Positions 1,369 through 19,679 are shown, counted from the first letter of the stretch. The stretch is DNA of 23,512 bases from a virus (IMGVR_UViG_2531839455_000001); one strand, 5' to 3'. Program-made: numbers and translations. The notes: generated by a model from the sequence alone, not told the origin.

Positions 1369-1444
1369 GCCGATATAGCTCAGTTGGTAGAGCAGCGCAT
1401 TCGTAATGCGAAGGTCGTAGGTTCGACTCCTATTATCGGCACCA
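1369..1444 (+). tRNA. thrW: tRNA-Thr (anticodon CGU), 76 nt with encoded CCA
   Basis: GCCGATATAGCTCAGTTGGTAGAGCAGCGCATTCGTAATGCGAAGGTCGTAGGTTCGACTCCTATTATCGGCACCA: 7-bp acceptor stem, D loop AGTTGGTA, anticodon loop TTCGTAA (CGT), T loop TTCGACT. Confidence 0.9.
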
Positions 1445-1454
1445 TTAAAATCAA
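1399..1454. repeat. attL: 56-bp core shared with attR (thrW 3' 46 nt plus 10 nt downstream)
   Basis: ATTCGTAATGCGAAGGTCGTAGGTTCGACTCCTATTATCGGCACCATTAAAATCAA is repeated exactly at 19624-19679; integrase gene ends 5 bp away. Confidence 0.85.
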
Positions 1455-1458
1455 TAAG

Positions 1459-2622
1459 TTACACATCATTAGTACCTTCCTTATTTTTTGACTGGGACAA
1501 ATTTGGGACCGGTGGGTTCAGGATCGAGTCTATTTGCCGTGCGTGTTCGGTAAGGTGATTAGGTGCAAGGTGAGCATATCGACGAACCATTTCGATAGAC
1601 TCCCAGCCTCCCATTTCCTGTAACACTGACAACGGGACTCCGGCTTGAACCAGCCAACTTGCCCAGGTGTGTCTCAAGTCGTGAAATCTGAAATCATCAA
1701 TACCAGCCCGTCTCAGCGCCGCTTTCCAGGCTGTGTTTGCGTCATACCGCATCTTCCTTACTGTTGGCGCTTTCGTTCCGTCTGGTTTGGTACAGCTTTC
1801 CTTGTACACAAATACCCAACGGTGATGATTCCCGATTTGTTTTTTCAATACGCGACATGCAGTATCATTCAGCGCAACGCCAATTGCGCGGTTTGATTTA
1901 CTCTCTTCCGGGTTTATCCATGCCACCCGGCGCTGCATATCTATTTGTTGCCATTCAAGGTTGATGATGTTCGAGCGTCTTAAGCCTGTTGCCAGTGCAA
2001 ATTCAACAACAGACTTTAATGGCTCCGGACATTCATCAATCAGCCTTTGTGCTTCATGGGGCTCCAGCCAGCGGATCCGTTTATTCTTTGGTTGAGGCAC
2101 TTTAATAATTGGTGCCTTATCCAGCATTTTCCATTCACGCTCTGCGGCTCTTAGTAGGGCCTTTATAAATGAAAGATGCGTAGCCTTCGTTGCAACGGAC
2201 GCTGGTTTTGGCGTGTATTCTGGAACAGGTTTCCCTTTTTTTCTGCATGCTTCTGCCCTGAGTTTCCAGTTTTCCTCATGACGCCGGTTCGTCATTTTCT
2301 GCATTGCTGAATAAATTTTTGATTCAGTAATGTCTCTTAGTTGCATTCCTGCGAAATGTTGAAGCCAGAATCCGATCCGGCTTTTGTCATCGTCCAGTGA
2401 TTTTTTATGTGCTTTCTCTTCAAGCCACCTGACACACGCTTCCTCGAACGTTATATCAGGTATTTCACCAAGTTTGCTGACCCGCCATGCTTCAGCCTTT
2501 AGCTTGTCATGGAGTTCTGTCGCCTGCCTTTTGTCCTTTGTTCCAAGAGACTGTTTAAATCTTTTACCGTTCGGCAATGTGAAACTGGCGTACCATATTT
2601 CACCTCTGCGGAAGAGTGACAT
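1459..2622 (-). CDS. int: Tyrosine recombinase, P22-type phage integrase (387 aa)
   Basis: [25 protein letters not shown]...[16 protein letters not shown]...RRYAHL; C-terminal R..H..R..Y catalytic pattern; length and sequence match recalled P22 Int, whose attB is thrW. Confidence 0.9.
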
Positions 2623-2849
2623 TTTCTTTCCTCTGTTATGCCATCACCCGCGCTCACCTGGACAGTATGCAGCGGAGACTGAAGAGCCGCAATGCAGGCT
2701 TGTCGTGTTGTGAGGTAAGGAGATTTATTCTTAGTGGGATCTTTGCGTGTTGCCTGAAGACGCCCTGTGCGTATCCAGTTAATGGCAGTCGGTCTGGATA
2801 TCTTGAGAAAATGACAGGCCTCATCGAGTGTGAGGCTGTATGGCTCCAT
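2499..2849 (-). CDS. xis: Excisionase (116 aa); start taken at internal Met [29 protein letters not shown]
   Basis: Start ATG (2849-2847) overlaps the upstream stop as TAATG (translational coupling); winged-helix-like N-terminus; 3' end overlaps the int start by ~124 nt. The six-frame ORF extends to 2933 but upstream residues look non-native. Confidence 0.7.
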
Positions 2850-3154
2850 TATTTCACCTCTTGCTGTGACATTGTTGAAAAATGGATACCAGCTCGTTGC
2901 TGCCAGACGATCCAACCGAGAGTCATATCCCATGCCATGTATTCGTTATTGCCGTTTTTTGCTCTCCGACGATCTACTAAGTCACCGAAACGCTTTTCCA
3001 TGAATAATTCATAAGCTTCGCGTTCATCTGGTTCTACTTCCAGAGATAGGAGTGCGATTTCATAAGCACGGCGCTCAATATCGTCTCGCACGTCAAGGCT
3101 GCTGATACGCTCTTTAATTTCTTTAATCAGTTCTTTGTCGGTAAAAGTGGTCAT
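2849..3154 (-). CDS. yfdT: Small early prophage protein, YfdT-like (101 aa)
   Basis: ORF MTTFTDKELIKEIKERISSLDV...; coupled to neighbours by overlapping stop/start; size and position match recalled CPS-53 yfdT. Confidence 0.7.
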   Translation of the reverse strand: MTTFTDKELIKEIKERISSLDVRDDIERRAYEIALLSLEVEPDEREAYELFMEKRFGDLVDRRRAKNGNNEYMAWDMTLGWIVWQQRAGIHFSTMSQQEVK

Positions 3155-3516
3155 TATGCTCCAGCCTCCGGTGCTTTTGGCATTACTGCCCAGTGAGTGA
3201 TATTGACGTTTTCAAGGTCCCCGACCTGAAATGTCCACTGCCATTCTCCGGTTTCTTTTTGTCCCCAGGTGTACCAGAGAGAACGCCAGCCAATTAGCCA
3301 GCCTTCTCCGTTAGCATCGAATAACAAAACACTTTCATTTGCTGGTGGCAGTTCAGTTGACACTGGTATTACTTTGTTTTCCTGTGCTGCACATTTAGCT
3401 TCAAGCGCATCGAATTTACGCACCAGGTATTCAGCATCTGTTTCATTTACTTTCAGATCTCGCGGTACACATCTCCCACGAAGAAACCCTTCCATTTCGA
3501 AAACATTCATGCGCAT
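3154..3516 (-). CDS. yfdS: Early prophage protein, YfdS-like (120 aa)
   Basis: ORF MRMNVFEMEGFLRGRCVPRDLKVNE...; overlaps upstream and downstream genes (operon packing). Confidence 0.7.
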   Translation of the reverse strand: MRMNVFEMEGFLRGRCVPRDLKVNETDAEYLVRKFDALEAKCAAQENKVIPVSTELPPANESVLLFDANGEGWLIGWRSLWYTWGQKETGEWQWTFQVGDLENVNITHWAVMPKAPEAGA

Positions 3517-4043
3517 TTGCGTAACTCCGATAACTCGTTAAAGCGTTCCATAAACATCCCGTAGGCATGGCCCGGTGCCAGTGGAATCACGTTGAACATC
3601 TCTGTTGCCGGGATACCTTCCAGTACAGGCCAGAAAGAGCCATCATCAAGCCCGAGATCGCGGCGTTCGGTTGCCAGCATGATGAGATCGGCATATTTCA
3701 CGGGCGTACTCATAACTGGGGGTAACCCGTATTTCTCACGGATTACGGCGTCTATTTTTTCTTCCATTTGTTTATAGTCAGGAAGAAGGCGTTTCAGTGG
3801 TGCGGGAATGTCCTGGCAATACGCTTCTGTTGCATCATGCATTAACGCTTCAAAAGCAAATTCCTGCGGCACCAGCTGGCTGCAAAGAACCGCATGTTGG
3901 GCGACGCTGTAGAAGTGCGAAAGATGACCGGCAAAGCGACAGATATTTGAAAGGGAAACCGCGATATCGTTAATATCGATGTCGTCTTTATTTATCCTGT
4001 CATAATAAAAATGCTTCCCGGAAAAAGTTTTAATAAATGACAT
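3507..4043 (-). CDS. yfdR: HD-domain phosphohydrolase (5'-deoxynucleotidase YfdR-like), 178 aa
   Basis: HD motif in ...FEALMHDATEAYCQD...; start chosen at MSFIKTFSGKHFYY (ATG 4043) with GGAG 7 nt upstream; ORF track start at 4070 is probably 9 codons too long. Confidence 0.8.
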   Translation of the reverse strand: MSFIKTFSGKHFYYDRINKDDIDINDIAVSLSNICRFAGHLSHFYSVAQHAVLCSQLVPQEFAFEALMHDATEAYCQDIPAPLKRLLPDYKQMEEKIDAVIREKYGLPPVMSTPVKYADLIMLATERRDLGLDDGSFWPVLEGIPATEMFNVIPLAPGHAYGMFMERFNELSELRKCA

Positions 4044-4170
4044 TTTGTTCTCCACGTATATGCGCTGCACCGCGCTGAATTCTGGTAAAAAGAATCCCTC
4101 ACCATCCGGCGATTATTGAGTAAATTACGTTTCCATAAATGCCCCCGCAGGGGCATTTGCAGTAATGAAA

Positions 4171-4995
4171 TCAGGCGGTGAAAGTACCAATAAAGGTTTC
4201 TACTTTGCTGTCCTTGAATTTCTCAACAAGCAGCTCACGAAATTCGTTAGCCATTTCTTCCTGCACCGCCTCCAGCTGAATAATGCGCAGAACCAGTACA
4301 GGACGATCGCCAGTGATAATACTGAGGCGTAATTTAAACGGACGTTCTTTCAGACCTTCAAACGGAACGCATTTAAATTCAAATGCCACTGGCATAATGT
4401 CTTTGGTCTTCGCTTCGACAGACTCCATCAGGGAGCGTTTGCCGCTGAAGTCATTATCTTCAAAATCAGCGGTCTGGTTTGCTTCAATCGTGATTTTACG
4501 GACAGCCGCAGCCGCTTTTGTTGCCTGAATAGCGTCACCATTAGCATCAAAGCCCACAAGATAGTCGGCCCAGTCTTCAATCCATTCTGCTAGTGACTTC
4601 TGGGAGTTACGCTCGCCGTTAACAGACAACAGAGCAGAGAACGGTGCTGTCTTTTTCAGTTTGAGTGTGGCGGTGTTATCTGCGTGACCTGGTTCATCAA
4701 TAGTACCTAGGTTAAGCACACTGACGGCACGCATATTATCAGCATCGATAAAGCAGCGGGTGCCTTCATCTGCAAGATCTTTAGAATAACGGGTAAAATC
4801 ATCGATGCTGGCAGTGGAAAGCGCACCACGGAAACGGAAGCGATTTAAATTAAATTTTTCCAGATCATGAATGCGGAAATTCTCAGGCAATGCCACAGCA
4901 TCGGCACCAATCTTACTGATAATTTCATTAACACCCTGAGCAGAAATAAGGGCATGGATTTGATTAATTGCGGTTGCGTCTAAGTTCTGAGACAT
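4171..4995 (-). CDS. yfdQ: DUF2303-type prophage protein, YfdQ-like (274 aa)
   Basis: [29 protein letters not shown]...; length and order match recalled CPS-53 yfdQ. Confidence 0.75.
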
Positions 4996-5060
4996 AATAA
5001 GTCCTCACTATATAAAGATATTCAGTGATGAGATAAATAATCAGTTAATTAAAAACGATA

Positions 5061-5423
5061 TTAACGACCTGCTGCGCGGAGTTTTCCGTCAGGTTCACCG
5101 GCAAGAGTCAGCAACTGTCCCTGGTCTTCCTGCAGAATAGTCAGGCGACCACCGCGATTGACATACATCGGCGTTTCGGTGGTGTCTTCTTCGGAAATTT
5201 TCCCGCGGTTAGTCGGGCGAACATATGAGAGTTTGTGTTTGATTTTCACTCGGTTCTCATCAAACGGTTCGATTTCTAGGTTGAGCGAGACCTTACCTTT
5301 GGTTTTCGTGTTCATCACACCGGAAGCGACTTCACTGAGAACTGCGCCGATTTTGGTTTCAAATACGCCGCCGTCCAGCTCCCCGATAAATGCCTGCACA
5401 TCAGTACTGCGTTCGCTAGCCAT
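5061..5423 (-). CDS. yfdP: Early prophage protein, YfdP-like (120 aa)
   Basis: Start at MASERSTDVQAFIGELDGG (ATG 5423) preceded by GAGGAG with 7-nt spacer; the upstream part of the 226-aa ORF is Arg/Pro-rich GC-rich read-through, judged non-coding. Confidence 0.7.
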   Translation of the reverse strand: MASERSTDVQAFIGELDGGVFETKIGAVLSEVASGVMNTKTKGKVSLNLEIEPFDENRVKIKHKLSYVRPTNRGKISEEDTTETPMYVNRGGRLTILQEDQGQLLTLAGEPDGKLRAAGR

Positions 5424-5892
5424 TTTGCTGCTCCTCATCATATCGACCCTGCAAGGTCGGTTAGTTTCTCCACAAAACAGAGAAGAACACCTGCGGTGAC
5501 TGCCGCCCGGATGGATTGGGTTATGAGCCCGTCGTCCGGTGATGCTCTTCTCTGTTTTGTAAAAAGGACGGTACCAGCCGGAAGCAAGGGTACAAGCTGG
5601 TACCGCCAAGACTACACACAGCATAAAGTTGTGGTGCCGGGTGCCTCCCGGTGCCTGGCGAAGGTTGCACACCAGGCGGGTGGGTATCCACAGAAGGTCG
5701 ACTGTCAGCCTCAACCTTAACCCGCGTGCGCTGAGCCGCATTCACCACAACGCTAAGGATTCTCTCTGGTTGAAAATACTTAGCTGTTATGTGCCTGCTT
5801 TTAGCCACATCAGGCGAGGTGGACCTAGTTATTCCCCAACAACAAGGATTCGGTTAATCTGGATATCCCCAACAACAATAAGAGTATTCAAT

Positions 5893-6408
5893 GTGATCGC
5901 TGAATTAACGGCAGCAATGACGGCTATTCGTGAAATCGCCCAGATTGCAAAACTAATGAACGAGGCAAAAACTCAAGCTGAAGTAAATGCGGCTATTGGT
6001 GAGCTGAACTCAAAGCTTGCGTCTATTCAGCGCGAATGCGTGTCTCTCGTTGAACTGCTGGGCTCTTATCAAGAAATAAATGCTTCTCTCAAAGCTAAAA
6101 TTGCAGAATTCGAAAACTTTGAGGCTCAGACGGAAGGCTATATCCTTAACCAACTTGAGTCGGGTACTTTTGTATACTCGAAGGAGGTAATCGTGAACGG
6201 TGACAGCATAACCATGCATCTTTGCCCAAAATGTTTTGGACAAAAGATAGTATCGATACTTCAACCATTCCCGGTTAGCGAAGATGAGCTTTTTCATAAA
6301 AGCAGGTGCCTCCACTGTGAAAATAAGTTTCTGATGAATAAAAATCCGGATTACGTATCGCCTCCATCCATTGAGGAGTTGGCCAGAAAACTTAACGGCA
6401 ATCTGTAG
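5893..6408 (+). CDS. Hypothetical protein: N-terminal coiled-coil-like, C-terminal Cys-rich (CPKC...CLHC) zinc-ribbon-like; moron opposing the leftward early operon
   Basis: Protein-like ORF; candidate starts GTG 5893 (AAGAG 8 nt upstream) or ATG 5917; rho-independent terminator follows at 6448-6470. Confidence 0.5.
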   Translation: MIAELTAAMTAIREIAQIAKLMNEAKTQAEVNAAIGELNSKLASIQRECVSLVELLGSYQEINASLKAKIAEFENFEAQTEGYILNQLESGTFVYSKEVIVNGDSITMHLCPKCFGQKIVSILQPFPVSEDELFHKSRCLHCENKFLMNKNPDYVSPPSIEELARKLNGNL

Positions 6409-6447
6409 ATTGCTACTGTTGTGGATATCCAGATTGTTAAAGAGCGA

Positions 6448-6470
6448 AGCGTCCTATAGGGCGCTTTTTT
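6448..6470 (+). terminator. Rho-independent terminator after moron gene
   Basis: AGCGTCC-TATA-GGGCGCT stem-loop (one G-U pair) followed by TTTTT. Confidence 0.5.
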
Positions 6471-6550
6471 GTTGCTAACGAATCATCCTGGACTTCATAT
6501 GCTCCAGGGGGCTACTTCGTGGGCGTCCTGCCTGTTTGTTGTTTCTCTTG

Positions 6551-6585
6551 GGTACATTATGTATCTCAAAGGTACATTGTCAAGT
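6551..6585 (-). promoter_or_regulatory. Putative leftward early promoter (PL-like) with operator half-sites (OL)
   Basis: On minus strand: -35 TTGACA, 17-bp spacer, -10 CATAAT; two TGTACC half-sites overlap the promoter, same core as the OR palindromes. Confidence 0.45.
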
Positions 6586-6610
6586 ATAAAAAAACCTGCC
6601 GAAGCAGGTT
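6586..6610 (-). terminator. Rho-independent terminator downstream of repressor gene
   Basis: Minus strand AACCTGC-TTCG-GCAGGTT followed by T7. Confidence 0.6.
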
Positions 6611-6622
6611 CATAAACATTGA

Positions 6623-7297
6623 TTAGGCTTTGATTTTGTATCTTCTTGGTTTTCCTGAGAAAATCACAGTTCCAATTATAGAGCAATTACCGTTGATCTT
6701 AATGTAAGGCTCAGGCCAGTTTGGGTTTAACGCTTTGAGATAACGCTGTGTCCCATCTTCTATCAACCTTTTGAAGGTGGTTTCACCTGTATCGTGCATC
6801 AATGCAATAACGTCGTCACCGTGGCAGGCAGGTACTTCAGGATCGACAAAAATCATGTCTCCCGGGCGGTACTCATCAATCATTGAATCACCTATCACCC
6901 GCAAGATATAAGTCATTTCCCCACAGGGTACAGGGCAGGGATACGTTTCTGCTGTGCTCAAATCAACCTCAGAATATCCAACTTCTTTCCATGCTCCGGC
7001 CTGTACCCATGATATGACAGGGACTAATGTGATTTGTTTATTAGTGATTGAAACATCAGGTTTTTTTGTGATGTTCGTTGTCTGGTGTTCTTGATCGAGC
7101 CATCCGACAGGCAGGTCGAAACATTTTTCGATGTGTCGTGCCATGCTGTCACCGATATTTTTAGTAGCACCATCTCCCATAAACCTGCTGGTCTGGGTTG
7201 GCTCGCGATCAATCATAGTGGCAAAGGAAGAATTCCCGCCAACACCATCTCTCAGTTTTCTGGCGTTAGACCGCCGGATGTCATGGATTGTTTTCAT
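6623..7297 (-). CDS. cI: Phage CI/C2-type repressor (N-terminal HTH, C-terminal S24 LexA-like peptidase), 224 aa
   Basis: ORF MKTIHDIRRSNARKLRDG...; C-terminal region ...LRVIGDSMIDEYRPGDMIFVDP... typical of S24 autocleaving repressors; divergent from a cro-like gene with palindromic operators between. Confidence 0.85.
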   Translation of the reverse strand: MKTIHDIRRSNARKLRDGVGGNSSFATMIDREPTQTSRFMGDGATKNIGDSMARHIEKCFDLPVGWLDQEHQTTNITKKPDVSITNKQITLVPVISWVQAGAWKEVGYSEVDLSTAETYPCPVPCGEMTYILRVIGDSMIDEYRPGDMIFVDPEVPACHGDDVIALMHDTGETTFKRLIEDGTQRYLKALNPNWPEPYIKINGNCSIIGTVIFSGKPRRYKIKA

Positions 7298-7312
7298 AAC
7301 GAAATTAAAACC

Positions 7313-7382: not shown

Positions 7383-7387
7383 ATTGT

Positions 7388-7588
7388 ATGAAAGCGTATT
7401 GGGACTCTTTAACCAAAGAACAGCAGGGCGAGTTGGCCGGAAAAGTTGGCTCAACACCTGGCTACTTACGGCTGGTTTTCAATGGCTATAAAAAAGCCAG
7501 TTTTGTGCTGGCTAAAAAACTTGAGCAATGCACGTCAGGTGCAATTACGAAATCTGACTTAAGACCGGATATCTATCCGAAAGATTAG
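7388..7588 (+). CDS. cro: Cro-like HTH regulator (66 aa)
   Basis: MKAYWDSLTKEQQGELAGKVGSTPGYLRLVFNGYKK...; GGAGG upstream (spacer ~10 nt); divergent from cI. ORF track start at 7085 lies antisense inside cI, so rejected. Confidence 0.7.
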   Translation: MKAYWDSLTKEQQGELAGKVGSTPGYLRLVFNGYKKASFVLAKKLEQCTSGAITKSDLRPDIYPKD

Positions 7589-7619
7589 CAGAACACTTTC
7601 AATTTTTAACCACAGAACG

Positions 7620-8189
7620 ATGAGGCTAATCGTGGGTAAGCATCACTGGAAAGTAGAAAAACAGCCTGAGTGGTACGTGAAAGCTGTCAGAAAAACTATC
7701 GCGGCGTTGCCGGGTGGTTACGCTGAAGCGGCTGACTGGCTCGATGTAACAGAAAACGCTTTATTCAACCGCCTTCGTGCAGATGGCGATCAGATTTTCC
7801 CGCTGGGATGGGCAATGGTTTTACAGCGTGCTGGTGGCACTCACTTCATTGCTGATGCTGTGGCGCAGTCTGCAAATGGCGTCTTTGTGTCTCTTCCTGA
7901 CGTCGAAGATGTGGACAACGCCGATATTAACCAGCGTCTGCTGGAAGTCATTGAACAGATCGGCAGTTATTCAAAACAGATTCGTTCAGCAATCGAAGAC
8001 GGTGTAGTGGAACCGCATGAGAAGACAGCAATTAACGACGAGCTGTATCTCTCAATTTCGAAGCTGCAGGAGCATGCAGCACTTGTCTACAAAATTTTTT
8101 GCATTTCAGAAAGTAATGACGCCCGCGAGTGTGCAGCTCCGGGCGTCGTGGCGTCGATTGCTTCTGGTTGTGGAGAAACTAACGCATGA
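7620..8189 (+). CDS. CII-position regulatory protein (YdaT-like?), 189 aa; start may be GTG 7632
   Basis: Protein-like ORF directly downstream of cro in the rightward early operon; family assignment from position and weak recall only. Confidence 0.45.
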
Positions 8190-8533: not shown

Positions 8534-9475
8534 ATGAGCACTAAATTAACCGGCTATGTATGGGATGGTTGCGCTGCATCAGGCATGAAGTTATCCAGCG
8601 TGGCAATTATGGCCCGCCTGGCTGATTTCAGTAATGACGAAGGTGTGTGCTGGCCATCAATTGAAACCATTGCCCGTCAGATTGGCGCGGGGATGAGTAC
8701 CGTCAGAACGGCTATCGCACGGCTGGAAGCAGAAGGCTGGTTAACGCGTAAGGCGCGTCGCCAGGGTAACCGCAATGCGTCGAATGTTTATCAGCTTAAC
8801 GTTGCGAAGCTTCAGGCAGCGGCATTTTCTCAACTGTCAGATTCTGACCCGTCAAAATCTGACGCATCAAAATCTGACCCGTCAAAATTTGATGCGTCGA
8901 AATCTGGCAAAAAAGCGGGTTTTCACCCGTCAGAATCTGGCGGGGATCCGTCAGTAAAATCAAAACATGATCCGTCAGATAAAAAACCTTCTCGTCCGGA
9001 CGCTTCGCAACCGGACACGCAGACGGCTGAACAGGATTTTTTAACTCGCCATCCTGATGCGGTTGTATTCAGCCCTAAAAAGCGCCAGTGGGGGACGCAG
9101 GATGATTTGACCTGCGCACAGTGGCTCTGGAAAAAAATCATCGCCCTGTACGAGCAGGCTGCCGAATGTGACGGCGAGGTGGTTCGTCCCAAAGAACCGA
9201 ACTGGACAGCCTGGGCAAACGAAATTCGCCTGATGTGTGTGCAGGATGGTCGTACTCACAAACAAATCTGCGAGATGTACAGCCGCGTCAGCCGCGATCC
9301 GTTCTGGTGCCGTAACGTGCTCAGCCCGTCGAAGCTGCGGGAAAAATGGGATGAGCTTTCCCTGCGCTTATCGCCGTCCGTAAGCACGTACACCGAAAAA
9401 CGCGAAGACCCGTACTTCAAATCCAGTTACGACAACGTGGACTACAGCCAGATCCCGGCAGGATTCAGGGGGTGA
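8534..9475 (+). CDS. Lambda O-like replication initiator (N-terminal winged-helix), 313 aa, iterons embedded
   Basis: N-terminus ...DEGVCWPSIETIARQIGAGMSTVRTAIARLEAEGWL...; central repeat-encoded segment DPSKSDASKSDPSKFDASKS coincides with DNA iterons. Confidence 0.7.
   Translation: MSTKLTGYVWDGCAASGMKLSSVAIMARLADFSNDEGVCWPSIETIARQIGAGMSTVRTAIARLEAEGWLTRKARRQGNRNASNVYQLNVAKLQAAAFSQLSDSDPSKSDASKSDPSKFDASKSGKKAGFHPSESGGDPSVKSKHDPSDKKPSRPDASQPDTQTAEQDFLTRHPDAVVFSPKKRQWGTQDDLTCAQWLWKKIIALYEQAAECDGEVVRPKEPNWTAWANEIRLMCVQDGRTHKQICEMYSRVSRDPFWCRNVLSPSKLREKWDELSLRLSPSVSTYTEKREDPYFKSSYDNVDYSQIPAGFRG
8828..8990. repeat. Iteron array (putative prophage ori) inside replication gene
   Basis: Tandem ~15-bp units TCTGACCCGTCAAAA / TCTGACGCATCAAAA / TCTGACCCGTCAAAA / TTTGATGCGTCGAAA and degenerate copies (..CCGTCAGAATCT.., ..TCCGTCAGTAAAATC.., ..TCCGTCAGATAAAAAA). 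Confidence 0.6.
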
Positions 9476-9490: not shown

Positions 9491-10009
9491 ATGACGTTCA
9501 GAAATTCATTGAAGCCCAAAGATATTGTTGGTGTATGGACCGTATGTCACGGGCATATTGCACCGCCAGATATTCCGGCAGGCTTCGTGGCTGTTTTCAA
9601 CAGTGATGAGGCATCGTGGCATCTCGTTGAAGACCATCGAGGTAAAACGGTTTATGACGTGGCATCAGGGGACGCGTTATTTATTTCTGAACTCGGTCCG
9701 TTACCGGAAAATGTTACTTGGTTGTCACCGGAAGGGGAATATCAGAAGTGGAACGGCACAGCCTGGGTGAAGGATACGGAAGCAGAAAAACTGTTCCGGA
9801 TCCGGGAGGCGGAAGAAACAAAAAACAGCCTGATGCAGGTAGCCAGTGAGCATATTGCGCCGCTTCAGGATGCTGCAGATCTGGAAATCGCAACGGAGGA
9901 AGAAACCTCGTTGCTTGAAGCCTGGAAGAAGTATCGGGTGTTGCTGAATCGTGTTGATACATCAACTGCACCTGATATTGAGTGGCCTGCAATCCCTGTT
10001 ATGGAATAA
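9491..10009 (+). pseudogene. Tail fibre assembly (Tfa) gene remnant: conserved C-terminal portion only, fused to an unrelated short N-terminus
   Basis: ...[35 protein letters not shown]...[16 protein letters not shown]...[22 protein letters not shown] matches the recalled Tfa C-terminal domain; canonical Tfa N-terminus absent; no tail fibre gene upstream. Confidence 0.65.
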
Positions 10010-10562: not shown

Positions 10563-11504
10563 ATGTCCGGTTACTGTTTTTACTCTCAGGATGCATTAGC
10601 CTTAGCCCAGGCAGCTGGTGTTGATGTAATAATAAACGAGTATGCTGAGAAGAATAAAAAACAGACATATGTTCTTTGTCGTCCCCTGTCAAATGAGGAT
10701 GTAAAGTATGATTATGACCAAGCGATAGCGGTATTTTCGGCTGGTATAAAACCTTTTTTTATGAATTTAGGAGATGACGTCGAACTCTTTGAAGAGTATC
10801 AAGAGGATTTTCTAGAGGATGTATCATATTTAGCAGAGAAATTTAAGTATCGTAGTAAAATTGGAAGAAAAAAGACATGGCAAGATTTATTTGAAGTACT
10901 TTCTGTTGGTGATGCCGATTTCAGTAAGCTGGAGGTTGAAACTAAAGAAAGTAGAATAATTGATTTGCTAATCTCGCTTATTGTGGGAAGTATTAACGAT
11001 ACTTCAAGAATTAATCTTGAAGCAAGTAATTTATTAGATACAATAAAATCAAAGATTATTTTATTTGATACTGATCAAACAAAATTCGTTTTCCAAAGTG
11101 GAATTGGAAAAAAGACTGTAATACAAGGCTTGGCTGGTTCGGGGAAAACAGAACTCCTTTTACATAAATTAAAAGAGGTTTATTTAAGGAACCCTGATGC
11201 TAAAATTGCATTTACTTGTTTTAATAAAATACTTGCATCTACAATGAGAACTAGGATACCAGAGTTTTTTGATTTTATGCGAGTGGAAAAGCAAATTGAA
11301 TGGGGTACGAAACTTTTTTGTTTTAACTCTTGGGGTTTGACTAAAGATCCCTTTTCTGGGATGTATAGATATATATGTCATTATTACGAAATTCCATTCG
11401 GTGGTTTTGGCAACGGAGATTTCGATGCTCTTTGCAAAAAAGCCATTTTGGATATAAAAAAAGTGGGCGGTCTGATGAAAAAGCTCTCGATTATGTGTTT
11501 ATAG
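10563..11504 (+). CDS. UvrD-like SF1 helicase, N-terminal segment (unknown ~190-aa N-domain + Walker A); reading frame ends shortly after an A7 run
   Basis: AGAGGAGG RBS before ATG; Walker A GLAGSGKTELLLHK (nt ~11127-11168); AT-rich; frame continues sensibly in the -1 frame after 11456-11462. Confidence 0.7.
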   Translation: MSGYCFYSQDALALAQAAGVDVIINEYAEKNKKQTYVLCRPLSNEDVKYDYDQAIAVFSAGIKPFFMNLGDDVELFEEYQEDFLEDVSYLAEKFKYRSKIGRKKTWQDLFEVLSVGDADFSKLEVETKESRIIDLLISLIVGSINDTSRINLEASNLLDTIKSKIILFDTDQTKFVFQSGIGKKTVIQGLAGSGKTELLLHKLKEVYLRNPDAKIAFTCFNKILASTMRTRIPEFFDFMRVEKQIEWGTKLFCFNSWGLTKDPFSGMYRYICHYYEIPFGGFGNGDFDALCKKAILDIKKVGGLMKKLSIMCL

Positions 11505-12550
11505 ATGAAAGCCAAGATTTTCCACAAAGCTTCATTGAACTATGTGAAATGGTTACATCTAAAAAACTATATGTAGCGGGCGATGTATTTCAAAATATAT
11601 TTATGCCGATTAATGATAACGTGAATCGAGCAGATATAGTTCTTAAAAAATGTTATCGCACAGATCCAAAGAACTTAATGTTTTCTCATGCACTAGGAAT
11701 GGGACTTTATGAGAAACCGGTGCTTCGGTGGTTGAAAGAGACTGAGTGGGATTCTTGTGGATATAAATATAATAAGGTTGGGGATAGAGTACATTTATCT
11801 AGGGATCCGTTAAGACGCTTTGAAGATATTCCAAAAAATCATAAAAGTACGGCTATTCATTTACTAAAAGAAGTGGATAATGGTCCTGATAAAATAGTTG
11901 AAATTATTAAGGATATTCAGGCCCGCAATCCTACTTTAGAGCAAGGAGATATAGCAGTCATTTTCCTTGATGCTAGTGGTTATATTTATGATTATATTCA
12001 ATCACTAAAATCAAAAGTCAAGTTGCAGCTTGGTTGGGACTCTAATATTTCACATGAGACAAAATCAAAACAAGATGGGAAGCTTTTTATTTCCAATATA
12101 AACAATGCAAAAGGGCTTGAGTTCCCATTTGTTATTTGTTTTGCTATGAAATTAGTAAAGAGAGCAAACTTTCGAAATGCTCTGTATACTATGATGGCTA
12201 GATCTTTTTTAGAAAGCCATTTAGTTTTAAATAATGATAATGAAAATCCGGCAATGCCTACTATTATTGAAGGTTTAGATTTTCTCAATAAAAATGATTA
12301 TATGGATGTAAGACTTCCGTCGGATGAGGAAATAAACAATCAAAAGGATTATATTATTTTGGATGAGTCTACCTCTATTAATCAAATGGTTAGAAAATAT
12401 TGTGAAGATAAAAAATCCACACCTCGCTTAATAGCAAAAGTTACTCACACTGTAGAAACTATAATAGCAGGTCTTGATGATGATGATGTCGATGATGACT
12501 ATATAAATAGATTGATTGAAATAGAATATATAAGGAATAAAAAGTTATGA
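11375..12550 (+). CDS. UvrD-like SF1 helicase, C-terminal segment (helicase motifs II-VI); meaningful coding begins near 11462
   Basis: Motifs DYVFIDESQDF (II), YVAGDVFQNIF (III), CYRT (IV), AKGLEFPFVICF (VI); first ~29 codons of the ORF are an out-of-frame overlap with the N-terminal segment. Confidence 0.7.
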   Translation: MSLLRNSIRWFWQRRFRCSLQKSHFGYKKSGRSDEKALDYVFIDESQDFPQSFIELCEMVTSKKLYVAGDVFQNIFMPINDNVNRADIVLKKCYRTDPKNLMFSHALGMGLYEKPVLRWLKETEWDSCGYKYNKVGDRVHLSRDPLRRFEDIPKNHKSTAIHLLKEVDNGPDKIVEIIKDIQARNPTLEQGDIAVIFLDASGYIYDYIQSLKSKVKLQLGWDSNISHETKSKQDGKLFISNINNAKGLEFPFVICFAMKLVKRANFRNALYTMMARSFLESHLVLNNDNENPAMPTIIEGLDFLNKNDYMDVRLPSDEEINNQKDYIILDESTSINQMVRKYCEDKKSTPRLIAKVTHTVETIIAGLDDDDVDDDYINRLIEIEYIRNKKL

Positions 12551-13185
12551 GTTTTTATTTCTTTAATAATGTACCTACAGTGTACCTTGAAAAGTTCTGC
12601 GCTGTAAGAGATGCATTTTCCAATCTGGAAAATCTTCTTATTGCTGCGGAAATTATAAATACATGTCATGACTGTTGGAATAAAGAAACAAATGATTTCG
12701 ATTTGCTAATAAGTACTGGTACTCATAAGCGAATTCTGGTGAGGAAACCGGATGGTTTTTTTTCTATGAATTTACCATTTCAAGTAATTGAGTATGAAAG
12801 CAATATCTGTTTTAACTATGATGCCTATGGGCTTCCTGTTAATGCAGAGTTTATTTCTCGATGCAGGAATGTAATAAATACTTGCAGTAATGGCGCTTTT
12901 TCTCAGGAGGCAATTGCTCTTGAATTGTGTGATAACTTTGATCGAGATATTCAAAGTGCTATAAATTATGCTGATGCAATTTGTTCATTGTTGTTAGTTG
13001 ATCATGGGTATTTTAGGTTTGATGATGATCCTAAAAATGCGAAGGATAAAGTGCATCCAAGATATCACTTTGATTTTTTCTTCAATAATTCTACTAATGT
13101 AAAGATAGGCTGTAATACTCGTTTGGATGAATCATTTTTTTTAGAACTATTTGATGTAAATAAAGACCGCCCCTATCTGGCTTGA
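12547..13185 (+). CDS. Hypothetical 212-aa protein, translationally coupled partner of the helicase
   Basis: ATG overlaps helicase stop (ATGA); AT-rich, Cys/His/Asp-rich (LVDHGYFRFDDDPKNAKDKVHPRYHFDF); strong hairpin directly after stop. Confidence 0.65.
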   Translation: MSFYFFNNVPTVYLEKFCAVRDAFSNLENLLIAAEIINTCHDCWNKETNDFDLLISTGTHKRILVRKPDGFFSMNLPFQVIEYESNICFNYDAYGLPVNAEFISRCRNVINTCSNGAFSQEAIALELCDNFDRDIQSAINYADAICSLLLVDHGYFRFDDDPKNAKDKVHPRYHFDFFFNNSTNVKIGCNTRLDESFFLELFDVNKDRPYLA

Positions 13186-13635: not shown

Positions 13636-14504
13636 TTATGAAAGACCGTAGTATTTATTTAGCGCGGTGGTAGCGGCTTGAGTTGCTACAGCTATTCCTA
13701 TACCCAAAATACCATGGGCTGCTTTACTTGCAATATTTGCCAGCCATTTACTAACAGATTGACCGTATTCATCACGTCTGTTAGCTATCGGGCCATCTTC
13801 ACCAATAGCAATTTCTAAATCGTTTACATCAGATTTAGGAAACCCCTGAGCTAAGAGATATTCTTTTAATGATTCAATGTTGTTTTTTACGATATGGTTA
13901 TTCACAGAAAATGAGTTTTCATTTCCGAAGTTTATAACAGTATTGTCTCCAAAAATTGAGTTATGAAACAATGAAGACGTGTCGATATTTTTAAGTTTTT
14001 CTGTCATGTTTTTCTCATCTGATATTTCAGAAACTTGATCAGAAAGTTCAAGTATAAAATCAAGTAGCCGTGATCTGACCTGAGTTAAGATGGAAGTGAA
14101 GTTATGTAGCGCGATCTCTTTATAACAGCATGTTAACTCATAGCCTCTATCGATACCTTTGCAATATTTAACTAATGCATAATCTAAAGGAATTGGCTGC
14201 TGCAGGGTATGGCTATCACCAGCATTGGTTACTAGGTCTTCGATTTGACTGATTGAAAGTCTAACTTTACTGGTTGTAGCATCTTCATAGTCATCTTCAC
14301 TGAGATAGCCAATCGGTAAAGGAAAAGCTCTATATAGGCGAATGCCATTGTTCAGATCTGCAAGAATTCTTGTGCCAACAATTCTATAATCGGGAAGGGA
14401 AACTGAATCAGAATAACCGTTTATCTCATGATTTACCCATGCAGCAAGCTCCTTTTTCCCGATAGAGAAAAGAAGGATCTTTGTTTTTATGAGAGCATCT
14501 GTTG
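13636..14504 (-). pseudogene. Abi-like gene (AbiTii-type N-terminal domain suspected), 3' portion; gene split by IS66-family insertion
   Basis: Minus-strand frame is open from the IS boundary (14504) to the stop at 13636 (...KELAAWVNHEINGYSDS...MTEKLKNIDTSS...AAHGILGIGIAVATQAATTALNKYYGLS); the ORF track shows only the distal 123 aa because there is no in-frame ATG upstream. Confidence 0.6.
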
Positions 14505-14534
14505 GTAAGCGGCTCGTCAGAACCGTATTGATAT

Positions 14535-16106
14535 TTACTGAGAGCTCAGATCAACTTTCCAGGGCAACAGATCGCGTACCCGGTTTGCCGGCCAGTCCTG
14601 GATATGTTCAATGACGTAGCGCAGCCACTTTTCTGGCTCCACATTGTTCAGACGGCATGTGCCGATCAGCGAGTACAACACCGCCGCATGTTCACCACCG
14701 CTGTCGGAACCCGCGAACATCCACTTTTTCCGGCCTACGGCCACTCCCCGTAAGGCGTTCTCTGCGATGTTGTTGTCGATTTCCACCCAGCCATTACTGC
14801 AGTACACGTTCAGTGCATCCCACTGTTTCAGCAGGTATGCGAACGCTTTTGCCGTATCTGAGTGACGCGACAGTGTTTTCATCTGTTGCTGTATCCAGTC
14901 ATACAGTGACTGCATCAGTGGCGCGGCTCTGGTTTTTCTTGCCGCCAGACGCTGTTCTGCTGAACAGCCCCGGACCTCTGCCTCGATGGCATACAGTTCA
15001 CCGATACGCTGCAGGGCTTCCGTGGTGATGTCGGTGGGCGCTCTTGCATGCACATCGTGGATTTTTCTCCGGGCATGAGCCATACACGCGGCTTCCGTTA
15101 TTCTGCCGGATTCGTATAACGCCCGGTAACCACCGTAAGCATCGGCCTGAAGCACACCGCTGTAACCGGCCAGGTGATTTTGTGGATGGATACCTTTCCG
15201 GTCCGGACTGTACGCGAACCAGACCGCCGGGGGCATCTGTGAACCGGCGTTACGGTCATCACGGACGTAGACCCACAGCCGGGCTGTCCGGGTTTTACCG
15301 CTGCCCGGCTCCTGGACCGGGACGGGGATATCATCAGCATGGACTTTACCGGGCATCAGCACATACTGGCGCAGGACGTCATACAGCGGCTCCAGTAGTT
15401 CAGCAACGGCACCTGTCCAGCGCCCCAGTGTGGCACGGCTCAGCTCCACACCCTGACGGCGGTATATCTCTGACTGGCGGTATAACGGCAGATGGTCTGC
15501 ATATTTTCCGGTGACGACATGGGCCAGGAGCCCCGCTCCGGCATAACTGCGTGCAATGGGTTTTGAAGGTACTGGTGCCTGCACGATATGGTCGCACCGA
15601 CAACAGGCCAGTTTCGGACGTTGTGTTTCGATAACCTTAAAGGCGCTGCTGATAAGCTCCAGTTGCTCTGACACATCACATCCCAGAGAACTGAGTTCAC
15701 CACCACAGGCAGGACAGCATTCCTCTTCCGGCCGGATAACCCGGGTTTCACGGGGAAGTGAGGCCGGTAACGGTTTACGGGCTGAAGACTGGCGCAGGGC
15801 GGATGGCAGTACCGGGTCATATTGCTCACCCAGCGTTTCCGCCATTTCTTCCTGAAGTGCGCTGATTCGCTCCTGTGCTTCCTGTATCTGCCGTTCGGTT
15901 TTTGCACGAAGTTTTTCTGAGCTTTTACCGAACTGCATACGTTGCAGTTTCGCAACCAGCGCCTTCAGCCGGTTGATTTCGGAAGCATAAGCCGCCACCC
16001 GCTGTGAGAGCAGGCGGTTGTATTCAGCCATCTGGCGTATGGTGTCCTGTTGCGTCTGCAACAGTGCCCGCAGGCGGGCGTTCTCATGAGCAAGTGAGGT
16101 GTCCAT
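14535..16106 (-). CDS. tnpC: IS66-family transposase TnpC (523 aa)
   Basis: [20 protein letters not shown]... with leucine-zipper-like N-terminus, CxxC...CxxC zinc-finger and DDE-type core, matching recalled IS66 Orf3. Confidence 0.9.
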
Positions 16107-16125
16107 ATCCTCACTTTACAACGGG

Positions 16126-16473
16126 TTATATGCGGATTCCAGCGCGTTCCGTTCGTTTCGGGTGCTTCCAGTTGATACCTTCAAGAAGCATGGATAACTG
16201 AGCCGGAGTAAGGTGCACCTTGCCGTCACGGGTGACTGGCCAGACGAAGCGGCCCCGCTCCAGGCGTTTGGTGAAGAGGCACAGTCCGTCACTGTCAGCC
16301 CACAACACTTTTATCTGGTCACCCCGGCGTCCGCGGAAGATGAACAGGTGTCCGGAGAACGGGTCATCCTTCAGGACGTTCTGAACTTTTGATGCCAGGC
16401 CGTTAAAGCCATTTCGCATATCGGTGATACCTGCAACCAGCCAGATACGCGAACCTGCAGGGAGAGATATCAT
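16126..16473 (-). CDS. tnpB: IS66-family TnpB (Orf2), 115 aa
   Basis: MISLPAGSRIWLVAGITDMRNGFNGLASKVQ...GHLFIFRGRRGDQIKVLWAD..., the recalled conserved IS66 Orf2 signature. Confidence 0.85.
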   Translation of the reverse strand: MISLPAGSRIWLVAGITDMRNGFNGLASKVQNVLKDDPFSGHLFIFRGRRGDQIKVLWADSDGLCLFTKRLERGRFVWPVTRDGKVHLTPAQLSMLLEGINWKHPKRTERAGIRI

Positions 16474-16679
16474 CAGTGGCTGCTCCCTTTTATTTCGCGG
16501 ATAAGTGTCTGTAATAACGCCGGCGTCAGTTTACCTTTAAGCCTGAGAGTTCCGGCCGGCAGAACCAGCTCACAACACAGACTGTCGGACGGTGTATTTA
16601 TCTGCTCTGGTTCCTGTGCGGGGGCCGGGATTTTATTATCCGGCTCCGGCGTTAACGTCACGGGAAGCAGTGCCGGCAT
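16473..16679 (-). CDS. IS66-internal small ORF (68 aa), stop overlaps tnpB start; possibly part of the accessory protein
   Basis: ATGA overlap with tnpB; Pro-rich; no in-frame ATG upstream; uncertain. Confidence 0.3.
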   Translation of the reverse strand: MPALLPVTLTPEPDNKIPAPAQEPEQINTPSDSLCCELVLPAGTLRLKGKLTPALLQTLIREIKGSSH

Positions 16680-16809
16680 ATTTTTTCCGGAAGGCAGCAG
16701 GCCACCTTTCCGGTATTGATGGTCGCCAGTTGAAGAGCAGGTTATCGTTGATTCCGTTTTCCCGGGGCGATCTGCGCCACACAGGCTCCGGGCTGCAGTG
16801 ACTGCTCCA

Positions 16810-17154
16810 CTAAGGCGATTTTAAACTCATAAGGGAAGTTGGGCCGCCGGGGGACGTTTTTTTACCACGGGGGCGTTCGGATATAACGGTGCTTTCAGGA
16901 CGTACGACTGGTACCGTGGAAAATTGTCCGTAAAGGCAGGCATCAAGTTCCTGCTCCGACATGCCTGCGGGCAAAGGCCACGAAAGGCCAGCTCTCCGAA
17001 AGCGCACGAACATACTACAAACTGTTGATTTTGGTACACCCAGGCGACGCCCGGCCACAACCCGGGGTAAATGTTCTTCAAAGTGAAGACGTAAAGCTTC
17101 AGTGATCCAGGTCCGGTGTTTCATACGATAGTGTCCATTAAAAATGATGGACAT
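16810..17154 (-). CDS. tnpA: IS66-family accessory protein TnpA (Orf1), HTH-containing, ~104-114 aa
   Basis: First ORF inside the left IR, same strand as tnpB/tnpC; HTH-like ...LGVPKSTVCSMFVRFRRAGLSWPLP...; alternative start MKHRTWITE at 17124. Confidence 0.5.
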   Translation of the reverse strand: MSIIFNGHYRMKHRTWITEALRLHFEEHLPRVVAGRRLGVPKSTVCSMFVRFRRAGLSWPLPAGMSEQELDACLYGQFSTVPVVRPESTVISERPRGKKTSPGGPTSLMSLKSP

Positions 17155-17207
17155 TATTTTTGTAGAGCCGGAGGAAACAGACCAGACGGTTTAAATGAGC
17201 CGGTTAC

Positions 17208-17267
17208 ATCTGTTGTGTCTTCATCACCAGTACTTAGTATCTGAATGATTTCTTGCAGTTGGTTCAT
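17208..17267 (-). pseudogene. Abi-like gene, 5' portion (first 18-20 codons, MNQLQEIIQILSTGDEDT...), separated from its 3' portion by the IS66 element
   Basis: Removing the IS and one TSD copy joins this segment in frame with 14504-13636 to give a continuous 306-codon ORF. Confidence 0.55.
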
Positions 17268-17281
17268 ATGTCTTATCCCAT

Positions 17282-17305
17282 AAAAAAGCCCGCATAAGCG
17301 GGCTT
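17282..17305 (-). terminator. Rho-independent terminator (minus strand) just upstream of the Abi-like start
   Basis: Minus strand AAGCCCGC-TTAT-GCGGGCTT followed by T6. Confidence 0.5.
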
Positions 17306-17434
17306 CTATGTCACTAAAGAGCCGCGGCTCCTTTGCGTATCCTTTTTTGTCTCCTCACCGTCTGGTCGGTGTCCTGCTGAGACTGCTAACTTCCTGTTTT
17401 TGTTGGTGTTGTCCTTACACTGTCCAATCATGAT

Positions 17435-17462
17435 TGGTGGAGCTGGCGGGAGTTGAACCCGC
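17435..17462 (-). other. ssrA (tmRNA) 3'-end fragment, att-site-like footprint
   Basis: Minus strand reads GCGGGTTCAACTCCCGCCAGCTCCACCA, identical to the recalled 3' terminus of E. coli tmRNA; no matching 5' half, so not a complete RNA gene. Confidence 0.6.
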
Positions 17463-17849
17463 TGACACGTCGTATGCAAGAACTTGCTGCGGCTGGATGG
17501 TGGACTTTCGATAGTGCGAGTATTGAATGATTTCCATCTATTACAGATTTTACCGTATTTCGGCATGAATGAAACTGAATATCCTCCCACCGACCCTCCA
17601 TGACTTTACACCACTGTCTCTGGGGCTGCTATGTGCCAAGAGCGGACGTTACAATCATCAGCCTATCCATTAACTAATGGGAATAGGTCACGATAGTTGT
17701 TGAATGAGCCCTTGTATAGTTTCAAAAATTGCTTTGATTTAATACATTGATACTGTTAGATTCTGAAGGATCCTATCAGTTTTAACACAATAGGTTTGTA
17801 TAAAAACATCCTGCAGCGTTTCAAATATTTTTCATGAGGTATTTATAAA

Positions 17850-18956
17850 ATGATTACTAGTGGGTATTTAATAGGACAGATAATTGACGACCTATCAAAT
17901 ATAGCACAGCAAGCAAAAGTCAGAAACAAACTTGGACATACTGATTTATCTGTGTTTGCTGAGAATTTTTTCAAGGATATACTAAACGAGACACTGGAAC
18001 TATCCTTAATAAACACTAACATAACAAGAGCTAACGAGCCTGGTATAGATCTTGCTGATATGGCAAAAAAAACAGCATTCCAGGTCACAACTGACAAAAC
18101 AAGTAAAAAAGTAATAAACACTCTTGAAAAAATAACATCTGAACAAAGAAATAATTACCGCCACTTCAATATTTTGATAATAGGTGATAAACAAGATAAG
18201 TATGAGGCTGTAACGAAAGCTTTAGCTAACAGAAGTGATACCGAAGAATCTTATGATGAAAGTGAAGAAGAACAAAAAAGTAAGATTCATAAAGATATAG
18301 TATTTGATCCAAACGAAAACATTATGGATTTGACTGACTTATTCCGTAAAATAATTGGGTTAGATTTGGTGAATATCCAAAAAATCCATAGCATCATCCA
18401 AAAAGAAGGCGCGAAAGTCAAAATTGAGCTTCAGGTCCCTGATGAGAATGGTGAGTTTCAAACGAATGGTTATGATCTTTGGGAATCACGTCCAAAAAAA
18501 CAACTTAGCGATGGGGTCATTTTCAGTAACTGGGAAGCTGCACAAGGCGGAGCAGTAGCCACACAAGAAGCAATTGATAAAACTAAGAAAGACATTGAGG
18601 AATTAGCGAGTCGCCTTTATTCCTTGCCACGAATAACACGCGAGTTTCTAGCAATGCTTTATGAGCTGGCTAACTATAAACGTGAACGATATGATGAGCA
18701 TCCAAGTATTTTCTATAGTTTTGTTAAAAAAACTTACCCCAATGCAGACGAAGAGATAAAATTACTGCTATCTCATGAGTTAATCGATATGGACTCTGAA
18801 CAAAAAGACACCGAAAGGTTTGTGGATACCGAGATTGGGTTATGTTTTTCTCTTCCATACAAGTCTTACCTAAATTTAGGGTTCTATAACTTTGTAAATG
18901 AAAATAAAATTTTATTTCGTGACGTAATTGGAAAGGTGGATTTTTCATGCTTCTAA
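17850..18956 (+). CDS. Hypothetical AT-rich 368-aa protein (orphan cargo gene next to attR; possible abortive-infection/defence protein)
   Basis: Clean ORF with GAGGT RBS 9 nt upstream; Lys/Glu/Asn-rich; no recognisable phage structural or housekeeping motifs by eye. Confidence 0.7.
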   Translation: MITSGYLIGQIIDDLSNIAQQAKVRNKLGHTDLSVFAENFFKDILNETLELSLINTNITRANEPGIDLADMAKKTAFQVTTDKTSKKVINTLEKITSEQRNNYRHFNILIIGDKQDKYEAVTKALANRSDTEESYDESEEEQKSKIHKDIVFDPNENIMDLTDLFRKIIGLDLVNIQKIHSIIQKEGAKVKIELQVPDENGEFQTNGYDLWESRPKKQLSDGVIFSNWEAAQGGAVATQEAIDKTKKDIEELASRLYSLPRITREFLAMLYELANYKRERYDEHPSIFYSFVKKTYPNADEEIKLLLSHELIDMDSEQKDTERFVDTEIGLCFSLPYKSYLNLGFYNFVNENKILFRDVIGKVDFSCF

Positions 18957-19623
18957 ATCCAAAATGACATCCCACTATATTTCATTGTTCTAACTCCTTT
19001 TGACTGCATAATAAGTCATCGGTTATGTTAGCCGACTGACTTTATGTTATTTACATTTAAATGACACAGTTGGAATATAATAATCAGCTGAAACAATTAC
19101 ACATAATTTCAAAATATTCTTTCATGTAACACTTCACCAGTAGAATTATCTCCGCTACCACATAATAAGCTTAAATCATATTAGAGTGTCTCTTGTTCTG
19201 GAGGCGAAAAATATATTTAATAAAGCTACAGCCTCCCAATTAGCATTGACCTAGTCACATGATGTCGCCAGTGGGCAAGATGAAGGGCCTTAATTGGTCT
19301 GTTGTTTTACTGTTCAGGTAAGCCTGTTGCCAGAGATAAGTTTGTTTTTTTATGAAAGTCAGCTCTTCGCTCATAACAGACATTCACTACAGTTATGGTA
19401 GAAGGTATGCATGCTGGGTGGGGAAAGTATGAAGGAAAAGAAGGCTGCTGTGTCGTTTGACATCACTGCAATCTTCTTATTGGTTATGCGGGTCGTAGTG
19501 GGACAAAACTGAGACACATAAGGCCTAGCAATGGCTTGCAAGGCTTTACATGTTTTGATGTGGTGGGACTTGTGAGCGCAGTGTTGATGGGGTAATGCTT
19601 TGAATTAGAAGCGGATTCTTATA

Positions 19624-19679
19624 ATTCGTAATGCGAAGGTCGTAGGTTCGACTCCTATTATCGGCACCATTAAAATCAA
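19624..19679. repeat. attR: exact 56-bp copy of thrW 3' end + 10 nt (partial tRNA-Thr, not a functional gene)
   Basis: Identical to 1399-1454; lacks the tRNA 5' half. Confidence 0.85.

Follow-up and report, generated by a model that had tools for sequence, protein, structure and literature searches.

The thrW gene is a recognised integration hotspot (PMC7545054). The closest described arrangement at this site is the tandem of phages SfI and SfX in Shigella flexneri, where SfI was found experimentally to integrate at the thrW-proximal attL of a resident SfX, producing a tandem array between proA and yaiC (PMC3306764). The locus described here is contained in IMGVR_UViG_2531839455_000001, a 23,512-nucleotide stretch of DNA referred to below as the window, and consists of an 18,225-bp element that lies between two exact attachment (att) repeats in front of the cryptic prophage CP4-6. 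It resembles the SfI-SfX tandem in integrase family, in the proA-thrW target, in the thrW-proximal placement of the newcomer and in having att sites at both outer ends and at the join between the elements (PMC3306764). It differs in that the distal partner is CP4-6 instead of an Sf phage, and in that the proximal element is defective and lacks gtrABC.

Among individual phages, SfV (U82619), SfI, SfII and SfIV are collinear with the element over attP, int, xis and the next five early-left genes, at 97-98% identity. SfV also carries cargo in the same slot between tfa and attP, but its slot encodes gtrA-gtrB-gtrV whereas that of an intact relative of the element encodes a helicase pair, AbiTii and a SMEK protein. 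The virion genes differ as well, being Mu-like in the tail of SfV and lambda-like in both the head and tail of the relative. Phage P22 shares with the element the 46-nt core formed by the 3' end of thrW, the lengths of Int and Xis (387 and 116 aa) and the boundary of the P arm; however, its arms are only ~80% identical, its remaining genome is unrelated, and the relative has a lambda-like virion and not that of a podovirus. CP4-6 of E. coli K-12 is 99.0% identical to the 3.9 kb past attR and has the same mmuPM-argF continuation, but the corresponding island of strain TW11681 differs in carrying a locus of heat resistance/transmissible locus of stress tolerance (LHR/tLST) and an mhp insert and in lacking both intF and the distal thrW fragment. 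The prophages e14, CPS-53/KpLE1, Rac and DLP12 are likewise products of deletion in which int/xis, immunity genes and a few morons survive; they differ in att site, while the element described here has specific cargo and is 99.8% traceable to a near-intact relative.

Att repeats, integration module and CP4-6

The direct repeat is exact over 56 nt, with copies at 1399-1454 and 19624-19679 (repeat finder and reading of the sequence) whose starts are 18,225 bp apart. Its first 46 nt are the 3' end of thrW and are followed by 10 further nt, and the pair can be extended to 64 nt (1399-1462 and 19624-19687) at 95% identity. By the author's arithmetic, the chance expectation for an exact 56-mer pair in 23.5 kb is (2.8e8 pairs)/4^56, or ~5e-26. 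The sole tRNA identified in the window by ARAGORN is tRNA-Thr(CGT). Five independent complete E. coli genomes (TW11681, 67-1, 504239, LR883000 and S1-NGR-02-A) contain all of the 23.5 kb in the same arrangement at ~100% identity, and the first of them belongs to an enterotoxigenic E. coli (ETEC) human-challenge strain. Both copies of the repeat are kept in all five. The features that define the two ends of the element and its flanks are as follows.

1..1254, plus strand: proA, upstream chromosomal flank of thrW (RefSeq annotation of the identical locus; 97.6% to K-12)
1369..1444, plus strand: thrW, tRNA-Thr(CGT), complete, with its 3' 46 nt within the attL core (ARAGORN; Rfam tRNA, 71.8 bits)
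1399..1454, no strand: attL core, repeat copy 1, 56 nt (repeat finder, sequence)
1459..2622, minus strand: int, tyrosine integrase, 387 aa, full length (Pfam Phage_integrase, 3e-48; BLASTP)
2499..2849, minus strand: xis, excisionase, 116 aa, full length (HTH_17; phrog_2907 excisionase, 1e-50; BLASTP)
19498..19623, no strand: P arm of attP, now within attR, conserved and with the same left boundary in SfIV, SfI, SfV, SfII and P22
19624..19679, no strand: attR core, repeat copy 2, 56 nt, partial thrW (repeat finder, sequence)
19680..23512, minus strand: CP4-6 left arm, with ykfI, yafW, ykfH, ykfG, yafX, ykfF, ykfB, yafY/yfjS and ypjK (K-12 MG1655 comparison)

A first-pass annotation of the window, made from the sequence, had described a 56-bp repeat made up of the thrW 3' end and 10 nt, an int/xis pair abutting attL and a CP4-6-like block beyond attR, and all three are confirmed here. 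It had also named the absence of the repeats from a corrected assembly, combined with a lack of excision products, as grounds for rejecting its reading, and in the five complete genomes the repeats are present. The stop codon of the int open reading frame (ORF) falls 4 nt past the attL repeat, and the xis ORF overlaps that of int. The label of P22-type that was given to the integrase holds at the level of the family; more precisely, the module is nearer to SfV than to P22, since BLASTP alignments of Int are gap-free at 98% identity with SfV Int and 90% with P22 Int. The gap-free alignments of Xis give 98% with SfV Xis and 87% with P22 Xis. The Int motifs GLR215, K242, H314-x-x-R317, W340 and Y349, assigned by reading the alignment, are the same in P22 Int.

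An attP sequence was rebuilt in silico from the core, preceded by the 300 nt that lie to its left at attR and followed by the 300 nt that lie to its right at attL. In the free phages SfIV, SfI, SfV and SfII a contiguous match to it extends over 481 nt (97-98.5%), and it is also contiguous, at ~79.5%, in P22 (79.6%), BTP1 and others. Each end of the element therefore represents one half of a single P22/SfV-family attP. Each match to a phage begins at the equivalent of window position 19498, 125 nt left of the core, and by this comparison the conserved P-arm module appears to be complete. The element can accordingly be classed, as far as its sequence allows, as a defective lambdoid prophage with a thrW-specific integration module of the P22/SfV type.

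On the other side of attR, window positions 19624-23504 align without gaps to the thrW 3' end and CP4-6 left arm of K-12 MG1655 (99.0% over 3881 nt). In TW11681 the island goes on into mmuPM, yagB, yagE-H, xynR and argF, and it is therefore CP4-6 itself and not merely CP4-6-like. In K-12, the distal boundary of CP4-6 is formed by the integrase gene intF and a thrW fragment. The annotation of TW11681 contains no integrase beyond argF, and a third thrW core was not found within the next 72 kb; its CP4-6 is a truncated variant that has lost the integrase end. The LHR/tLST carried by this CP4-6 homologue encodes clpK, sHSP20-GI, yfdX1/2, hdeD-GI, trx-GI, kefB-GI, psiE-GI, htpX and a degP-like gene. 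A displaced mhp operon is also located in it, outside the window (L001 40152-47509, L002 5069-20083).

Removal of the 18.2-kb element in silico predicts an empty-site junction in which thrW directly meets CP4-6. This junction and those at the two ends of the element were counted over 5426 complete E. coli genomes.

thrW directly joined to CP4-6 (empty site): 368 genomes, including K-12 MG1655, at 99.8-100% identity
proA-thrW-int of the same type (attL): 1213 genomes
P arm-core-CP4-6 (attR, tandem form): 42 genomes

Other tandem genomes contain the same prophage type in differently decayed forms, such as strain 81, in which it bears IS3, IS1 and IS5 insertions. A comparison with strains that have CP4-6 as the only occupant of thrW had been proposed in the first-pass annotation, and the 368 genomes with the empty junction supply it. 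Together with the contiguous phage attP and the SfX/SfI precedent (PMC3306764), they bear out the earlier proposal that thrW was occupied in tandem by successive integrations. It is highly probable that two integrative elements lie in series at thrW, with CP4-6 first to arrive, the lambdoid phage second and decay third.

Derivation from a 47-kb prophage and possible excision

At thrW, strain 25-07338 contains a nearly intact lambda-like prophage of 47.3 kb that encodes terminase, portal, capsid, tape measure, J, Lom, stf and tfa. Its locus, L009, was used as the reference for deletion coordinates by BLASTN of the window, and three segments of the window align to it.

Window 1-9518: 99.76% identity to L009
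Window 9555-14504: 99.98% identity to L009
Window 17207-19670: 100% identity to L009

Relative to L009 there are two deletions (9518-16403 and 16445-41385), which together account for 31.8 kb. They take away the region from yfdN to Q, the genes for lysis and terminase, and the whole set of head and tail genes. The description of the element as a degraded prophage is thus accurate: the late gene set (Q, lysis, terminase, head and tail) was not found in the window apart from a 3' fragment of tfa. The joints and the insertion sequence (IS) of the element are located as follows.

9517..9557, no strand: deletion scar, a 41-bp scrap of the lysozyme gene rrrD between both deletions (BLASTN vs L009)
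9557..10009, plus strand: tfa (tail-fibre assembly), 3' fragment (Caudo_TAP, 3e-44; annotated as partial)
14505..17207, minus strand: ISCro1, IS66 family, tnpA-tnpB-tnpC, with ends GTAAGCGGCTC.../GTAACCGGCTC... (annotation and L009 comparison)

ISCro1 is flanked by the 8-bp target duplication ATCTGTTG at 14497-14504 and 17208-17215. With tnpA-tnpB-tnpC, inverted repeats starting GTAA(G/C)CG and an 8-bp duplication, it has the characters of the IS66 family. On this comparison, the element appears to derive from a lambda-like thrW prophage of ~47 kb by two deletions and the insertion of ISCro1. In 25-07338 the sequence beyond attR is a different gene set, with an AAA ATPase and an S8 peptidase. 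Within the tfa fragment there is a full-length match to Rfam IS009 (RF02111; 220.9 bits) at 9768-9966. The adjoining DNA at 10010-10300 is ~85% identical to genes for DNA invertases ('recombinase family protein') in other E. coli prophages and is probably what is left of a tail-fibre invertase gene beside tfa.

Relative to the TW11681 RefSeq sequence, the window has five homopolymer indels and one single-nucleotide polymorphism, at 11456, at 16723, 16764, 16849 and 16875, and at 1512. Four of the indels lie in tnpA of ISCro1 and break its frame, and one lies in the cargo helicase (11456). They are probably base-calling errors of another assembly, but could be real.

The left part of the element encodes early, immunity and replication functions, and many of its genes have been named by the Prokaryotic Genome Annotation Pipeline after homologous yfd and ymf genes.

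2849..5423, minus strand: early-left operon, yfdT-, yfdR-, yfdQ- and yfdP-like genes (RefSeq annotation, PHROG, SfV comparison)
6623..7297, minus strand: CI-like repressor, ymfK, helix-turn-helix plus S24/LexA-type peptidase, intact (phrog_4 transcriptional repressor, 2e-49)
7388..7588, plus strand: Cro-like ymfT (annotation of the identical locus)
7632..8189, plus strand: ymfL (annotation of the identical locus)
8534..9475, plus strand: O-like replication initiator (phrog_391 'replication initiation O-like', 8e-136)

The five genes that follow xis match SfV orf28-orf32 in order and in size. The accession of the repressor protein is identical in TW11681, cS33a and 25-07338. A DUF4222 gene is located between the cro-like/ymfL genes and the O-like initiator, and six 15-bp iterons resembling TCAAAATCTGACSCR (repeat family D1) are found at 8822-8944 inside the O-like gene, the lambda-style position for a replication origin; they constitute a putative ori. 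A sigma-70 promoter scan of the immunity region returned no more sites than were found in shuffled sequence. Just left of the repressor gene and opposite the early-left operon is an ORF of 171 aa (5893-6408, plus strand; phrog_1244). The site left of the repressor gene is often occupied by superinfection-exclusion genes.

Excision of the element as an 18,225-bp circle after SOS induction or loss of repressor is plausible, provided that Int and Xis are expressed, because Int, Xis, the repressor and the cro-side genes are all of full length and identical at the protein level to their counterparts in the intact relative, and because both cores and the 125-nt P arm appear intact. The O-like gene and iterons might then let the excised circle replicate. 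The circle would be unable to package itself or to make particles, because the packaging and virion genes have been deleted, and cos presumably lay in the deleted late region as well. The suggestion that excision could mobilise the cargo cassette was for this reason too optimistic: the late region is gone, and within the cargo of the window a frameshift disrupts the helicase and ISCro1 interrupts AbiTii. Spread of the cargo would realistically occur only by recombination with a related infecting phage, which is feasible because the cargo is flanked by tfa and by attP/int homology, or by general gene transfer.

Proposed order of events and alternative explanations

The events can be arranged in three steps. 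CP4-6 would first have taken thrW, as in K-12. A lambda-like temperate phage of ~47 kb, carrying an SfV/P22-type int-xis-attP module and defence-gene cargo in the tfa-attP slot, would then have integrated by means of its Int, through a crossover of attP with the last 46 nt of an intact thrW. This integration would rebuild thrW at attL beside int and leave the partial thrW of attR abutting CP4-6. Finally, the two internal deletions and the insertion of ISCro1 into the AbiTii gene would have produced the present defective prophage of 18,225 bp, in which the att sites, int, xis, the repressor/cro/cII-like switch, the O-like initiator with its iterons and the cargo are kept.

A history in which CP4-6 came first is the most economical account of the sequence, and several points weigh against it. 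The order of arrival is drawn from distribution and decay instead of a dated phylogeny, and the block could have entered the lineage pre-assembled by homologous recombination. The integrity of the arm-type Int, Xis and integration host factor sites is judged solely by their conservation with free phages. In addition, a contiguous attP with the SMEK-side flank was not found in an exact-match scan of IMG/VR or Joint Genome Institute metagenome contigs, a scan of low power. A literature search on CP4-6, thrW and excision together yielded nothing relevant.

Arrival of the entire proA-thrW-prophage-CP4-6 block pre-built, by homologous recombination after transduction or conjugation, is possible though somewhat unlikely. 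Prophages of this type are very common at thrW (the 1213 genomes above), tandem forms come from varied sources in their 42 genomes, and the flanks diverge unequally from K-12, with proA at 97.6% and CP4-6 at 99.0%. Import would alter the place of the events, however, and not their mechanism, as the att architecture still needs site-specific integration.

The remnant might also be seen as a selected semi-autonomous element, lambda-dv-like or satellite-like, that excises, replicates from O and the iterons and is kept for its cargo. What it retains is exactly int, xis, both att sites, the repressor, cro, a cII-like gene and the O-like gene with iterons, and this set is ~100% conserved in five genomes. 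Those five genomes may be one clone, however, and the 99.8% identity to an intact 47-kb prophage and the 41-bp lysozyme scrap at the joint are the signature of random deletion. Capsid-redirecting or packaging genes were not found, an IS interrupts AbiTii, and the helicase copy of the window carries a frameshift; such an origin is improbable. A phage satellite of the phage-inducible chromosomal island or P4-like kind was considered separately and is ruled out: the element is a deletion derivative with an rrrD scar, and Pfam, PHROG and NCBIfam scans identified no genes for helper-exploiting packaging functions.

The reverse order, in which the lambdoid prophage arrived first and CP4-6 later entered the partial thrW at attR, is very improbable. 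It draws on the fact that attR holds the full 46-nt thrW 3' end, a site that a tRNA-targeting island integrase might use. The thrW-CP4-6 junction occurs without a prophage in 368 genomes, however, against 42 with the tandem, and differently decayed prophages of the same type precede the same CP4-6 arm. CP4-6 is here the more decayed partner, without intF and with no third thrW core within 72 kb, and the sole experimental case placed a newcomer of the same Int family at the thrW-proximal attL (PMC3306764). That the repeat is an artefact of assembly or duplication has a practically negligible probability: although the homopolymer indels indicate imperfect base-level quality in the window, the arrangement recurs in the five independent complete assemblies, and the flanks of each copy are distinct and coherent, matching a free phage attP and the K-12 attB. 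Successive integration, with CP4-6 resident before the lambdoid phage, remains the preferred account.

Cargo genes and significance

The cargo lies between tfa and attP, in a slot where SfV and P22 carry gtrABC. A gtrA-gtrB-gtr(type) cassette was not found beside attP of the element, where the slot contains the helicase pair, AbiTii, ISCro1 and SMEK; the module is therefore shared with the SfV group, but the element is not a serotype-converting phage. The cargo is composed of three units (helicase pair, AbiTii and SMEK) and one att remnant, and two of the three units are disrupted in the window, the first by a frameshift and the second by ISCro1.

10563..12550, plus strand: STM2767-family superfamily 1 (SF1) helicase (NCBIfam NF053713, 7e-272; UvrD_C_2/AAA_19)
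12547..13185, plus strand: STM2766-family helicase-associated protein, 212 aa, with a 4-nt overlap at the helicase stop
13636..14504, minus strand: AbiTii-domain gene, 306 aa when intact (Pfam AbiTii, 3e-30; PADLOC AbiTii, 9e-29)
17435..17462, minus strand: fossil ssrA-type att core, last 28 nt of the transfer-messenger RNA (tmRNA) (sequence; comparison with ET300 and phage LLS)
17850..18956, plus strand: SMEK_N (Mrr-like nuclease) domain protein, 368 aa, intact (Pfam SMEK_N, 2e-33; PADLOC Aga_REase model, 4e-28)

The first gene encodes a helicase of 662 aa in RefSeq assemblies, and the frameshift of the window copy at 11456 reflects a run of A7 in place of A8. PADLOC v2 identified only partial matches for the helicase (PDLC03002 at residues 158-346; a weak match to GajB) and none for the 212-aa partner; without a full-length match for both proteins, the pair is ruled out as one named PADLOC defence system. 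The predicted structure of a helicase relative (P0044) has a predicted local distance difference test score (pLDDT) of 72.8 and a predicted template modelling (TM) score (pTM) of 0.43. Foldseek matches of this model in the Protein Data Bank (PDB) were to the generic SF1 helicases SLFN11/14, Upf1, Dna2, GajB and RecD at TM <0.3, and nothing can therefore be concluded on the N-terminal domain of ~140 aa. No match was obtained when the helicase sequence was compared with PDB sequences. In the literature, STM2767 was encountered as a locus tag in Salmonella deletion maps only, and a functional study was not found.

Comparison with the uninterrupted loci L007 and L009 shows that ISCro1 has deprived the AbiTii gene of its promoter and of the first ~17 codons. 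The N-terminal domain of the SMEK protein matches the PDB entry for the Mrr domain of the Kordia Mrr-APAZ prokaryotic Argonaute (pAgo) at 4e-16, and the SMEK domain has been cited as a pAgo-associated nuclease domain (PMC10810196). The protein encoded here is stand-alone, with an uncharacterised C-terminal half of ~190 aa. Of the 5426 E. coli genomes, just 11 match the 2.3-kb segment bearing this gene (17160-19497) across 80% or more of its length.

The fossil ssrA site is preceded by a phage arm of ~230 nt (17207-17434). The site matches the end of an ssrA-integrated prophage in ET300 at 98.8% identity, and the attP/'tmRNA pseudogene' annotated in phage LLS at 92%. Exactly at the ssrA core, homology flips to DNA resembling the lambda b region (17459-17654, 81%). 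The block formed by tfa, the helicase, its partner and AbiTii has a 98.9% match at the end of an ssrA-integrated lambdoid prophage, again in ET300. From these alignments the site appears to mark an old module swap between phages of different integration specificity. The thrW prophage of cS33a (L004 19523-20934) encodes the Kiwa defence pair KwaA/KwaB beside Q, a position that appears from its gene content to be a second variable defence slot in this group of phages.

The architecture of the locus is ordinary and represents an already documented mode by which tRNA hotspots are filled, and knowledge of tRNA-gene hotspots and of P22/SfV-type integration is left unchanged. Its value is mainly one of bookkeeping, as it accounts for ~18 kb of the genome of an ETEC challenge strain. 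It also offers a clean and datable example, beside an older cryptic prophage, of how a prophage decays, for which the exact deletion joints and the target duplication of an IS are available. Wider value is possible only in the uncharacterised helicase pair, the SMEK nuclease gene and the exchange of slots across integration specificities.

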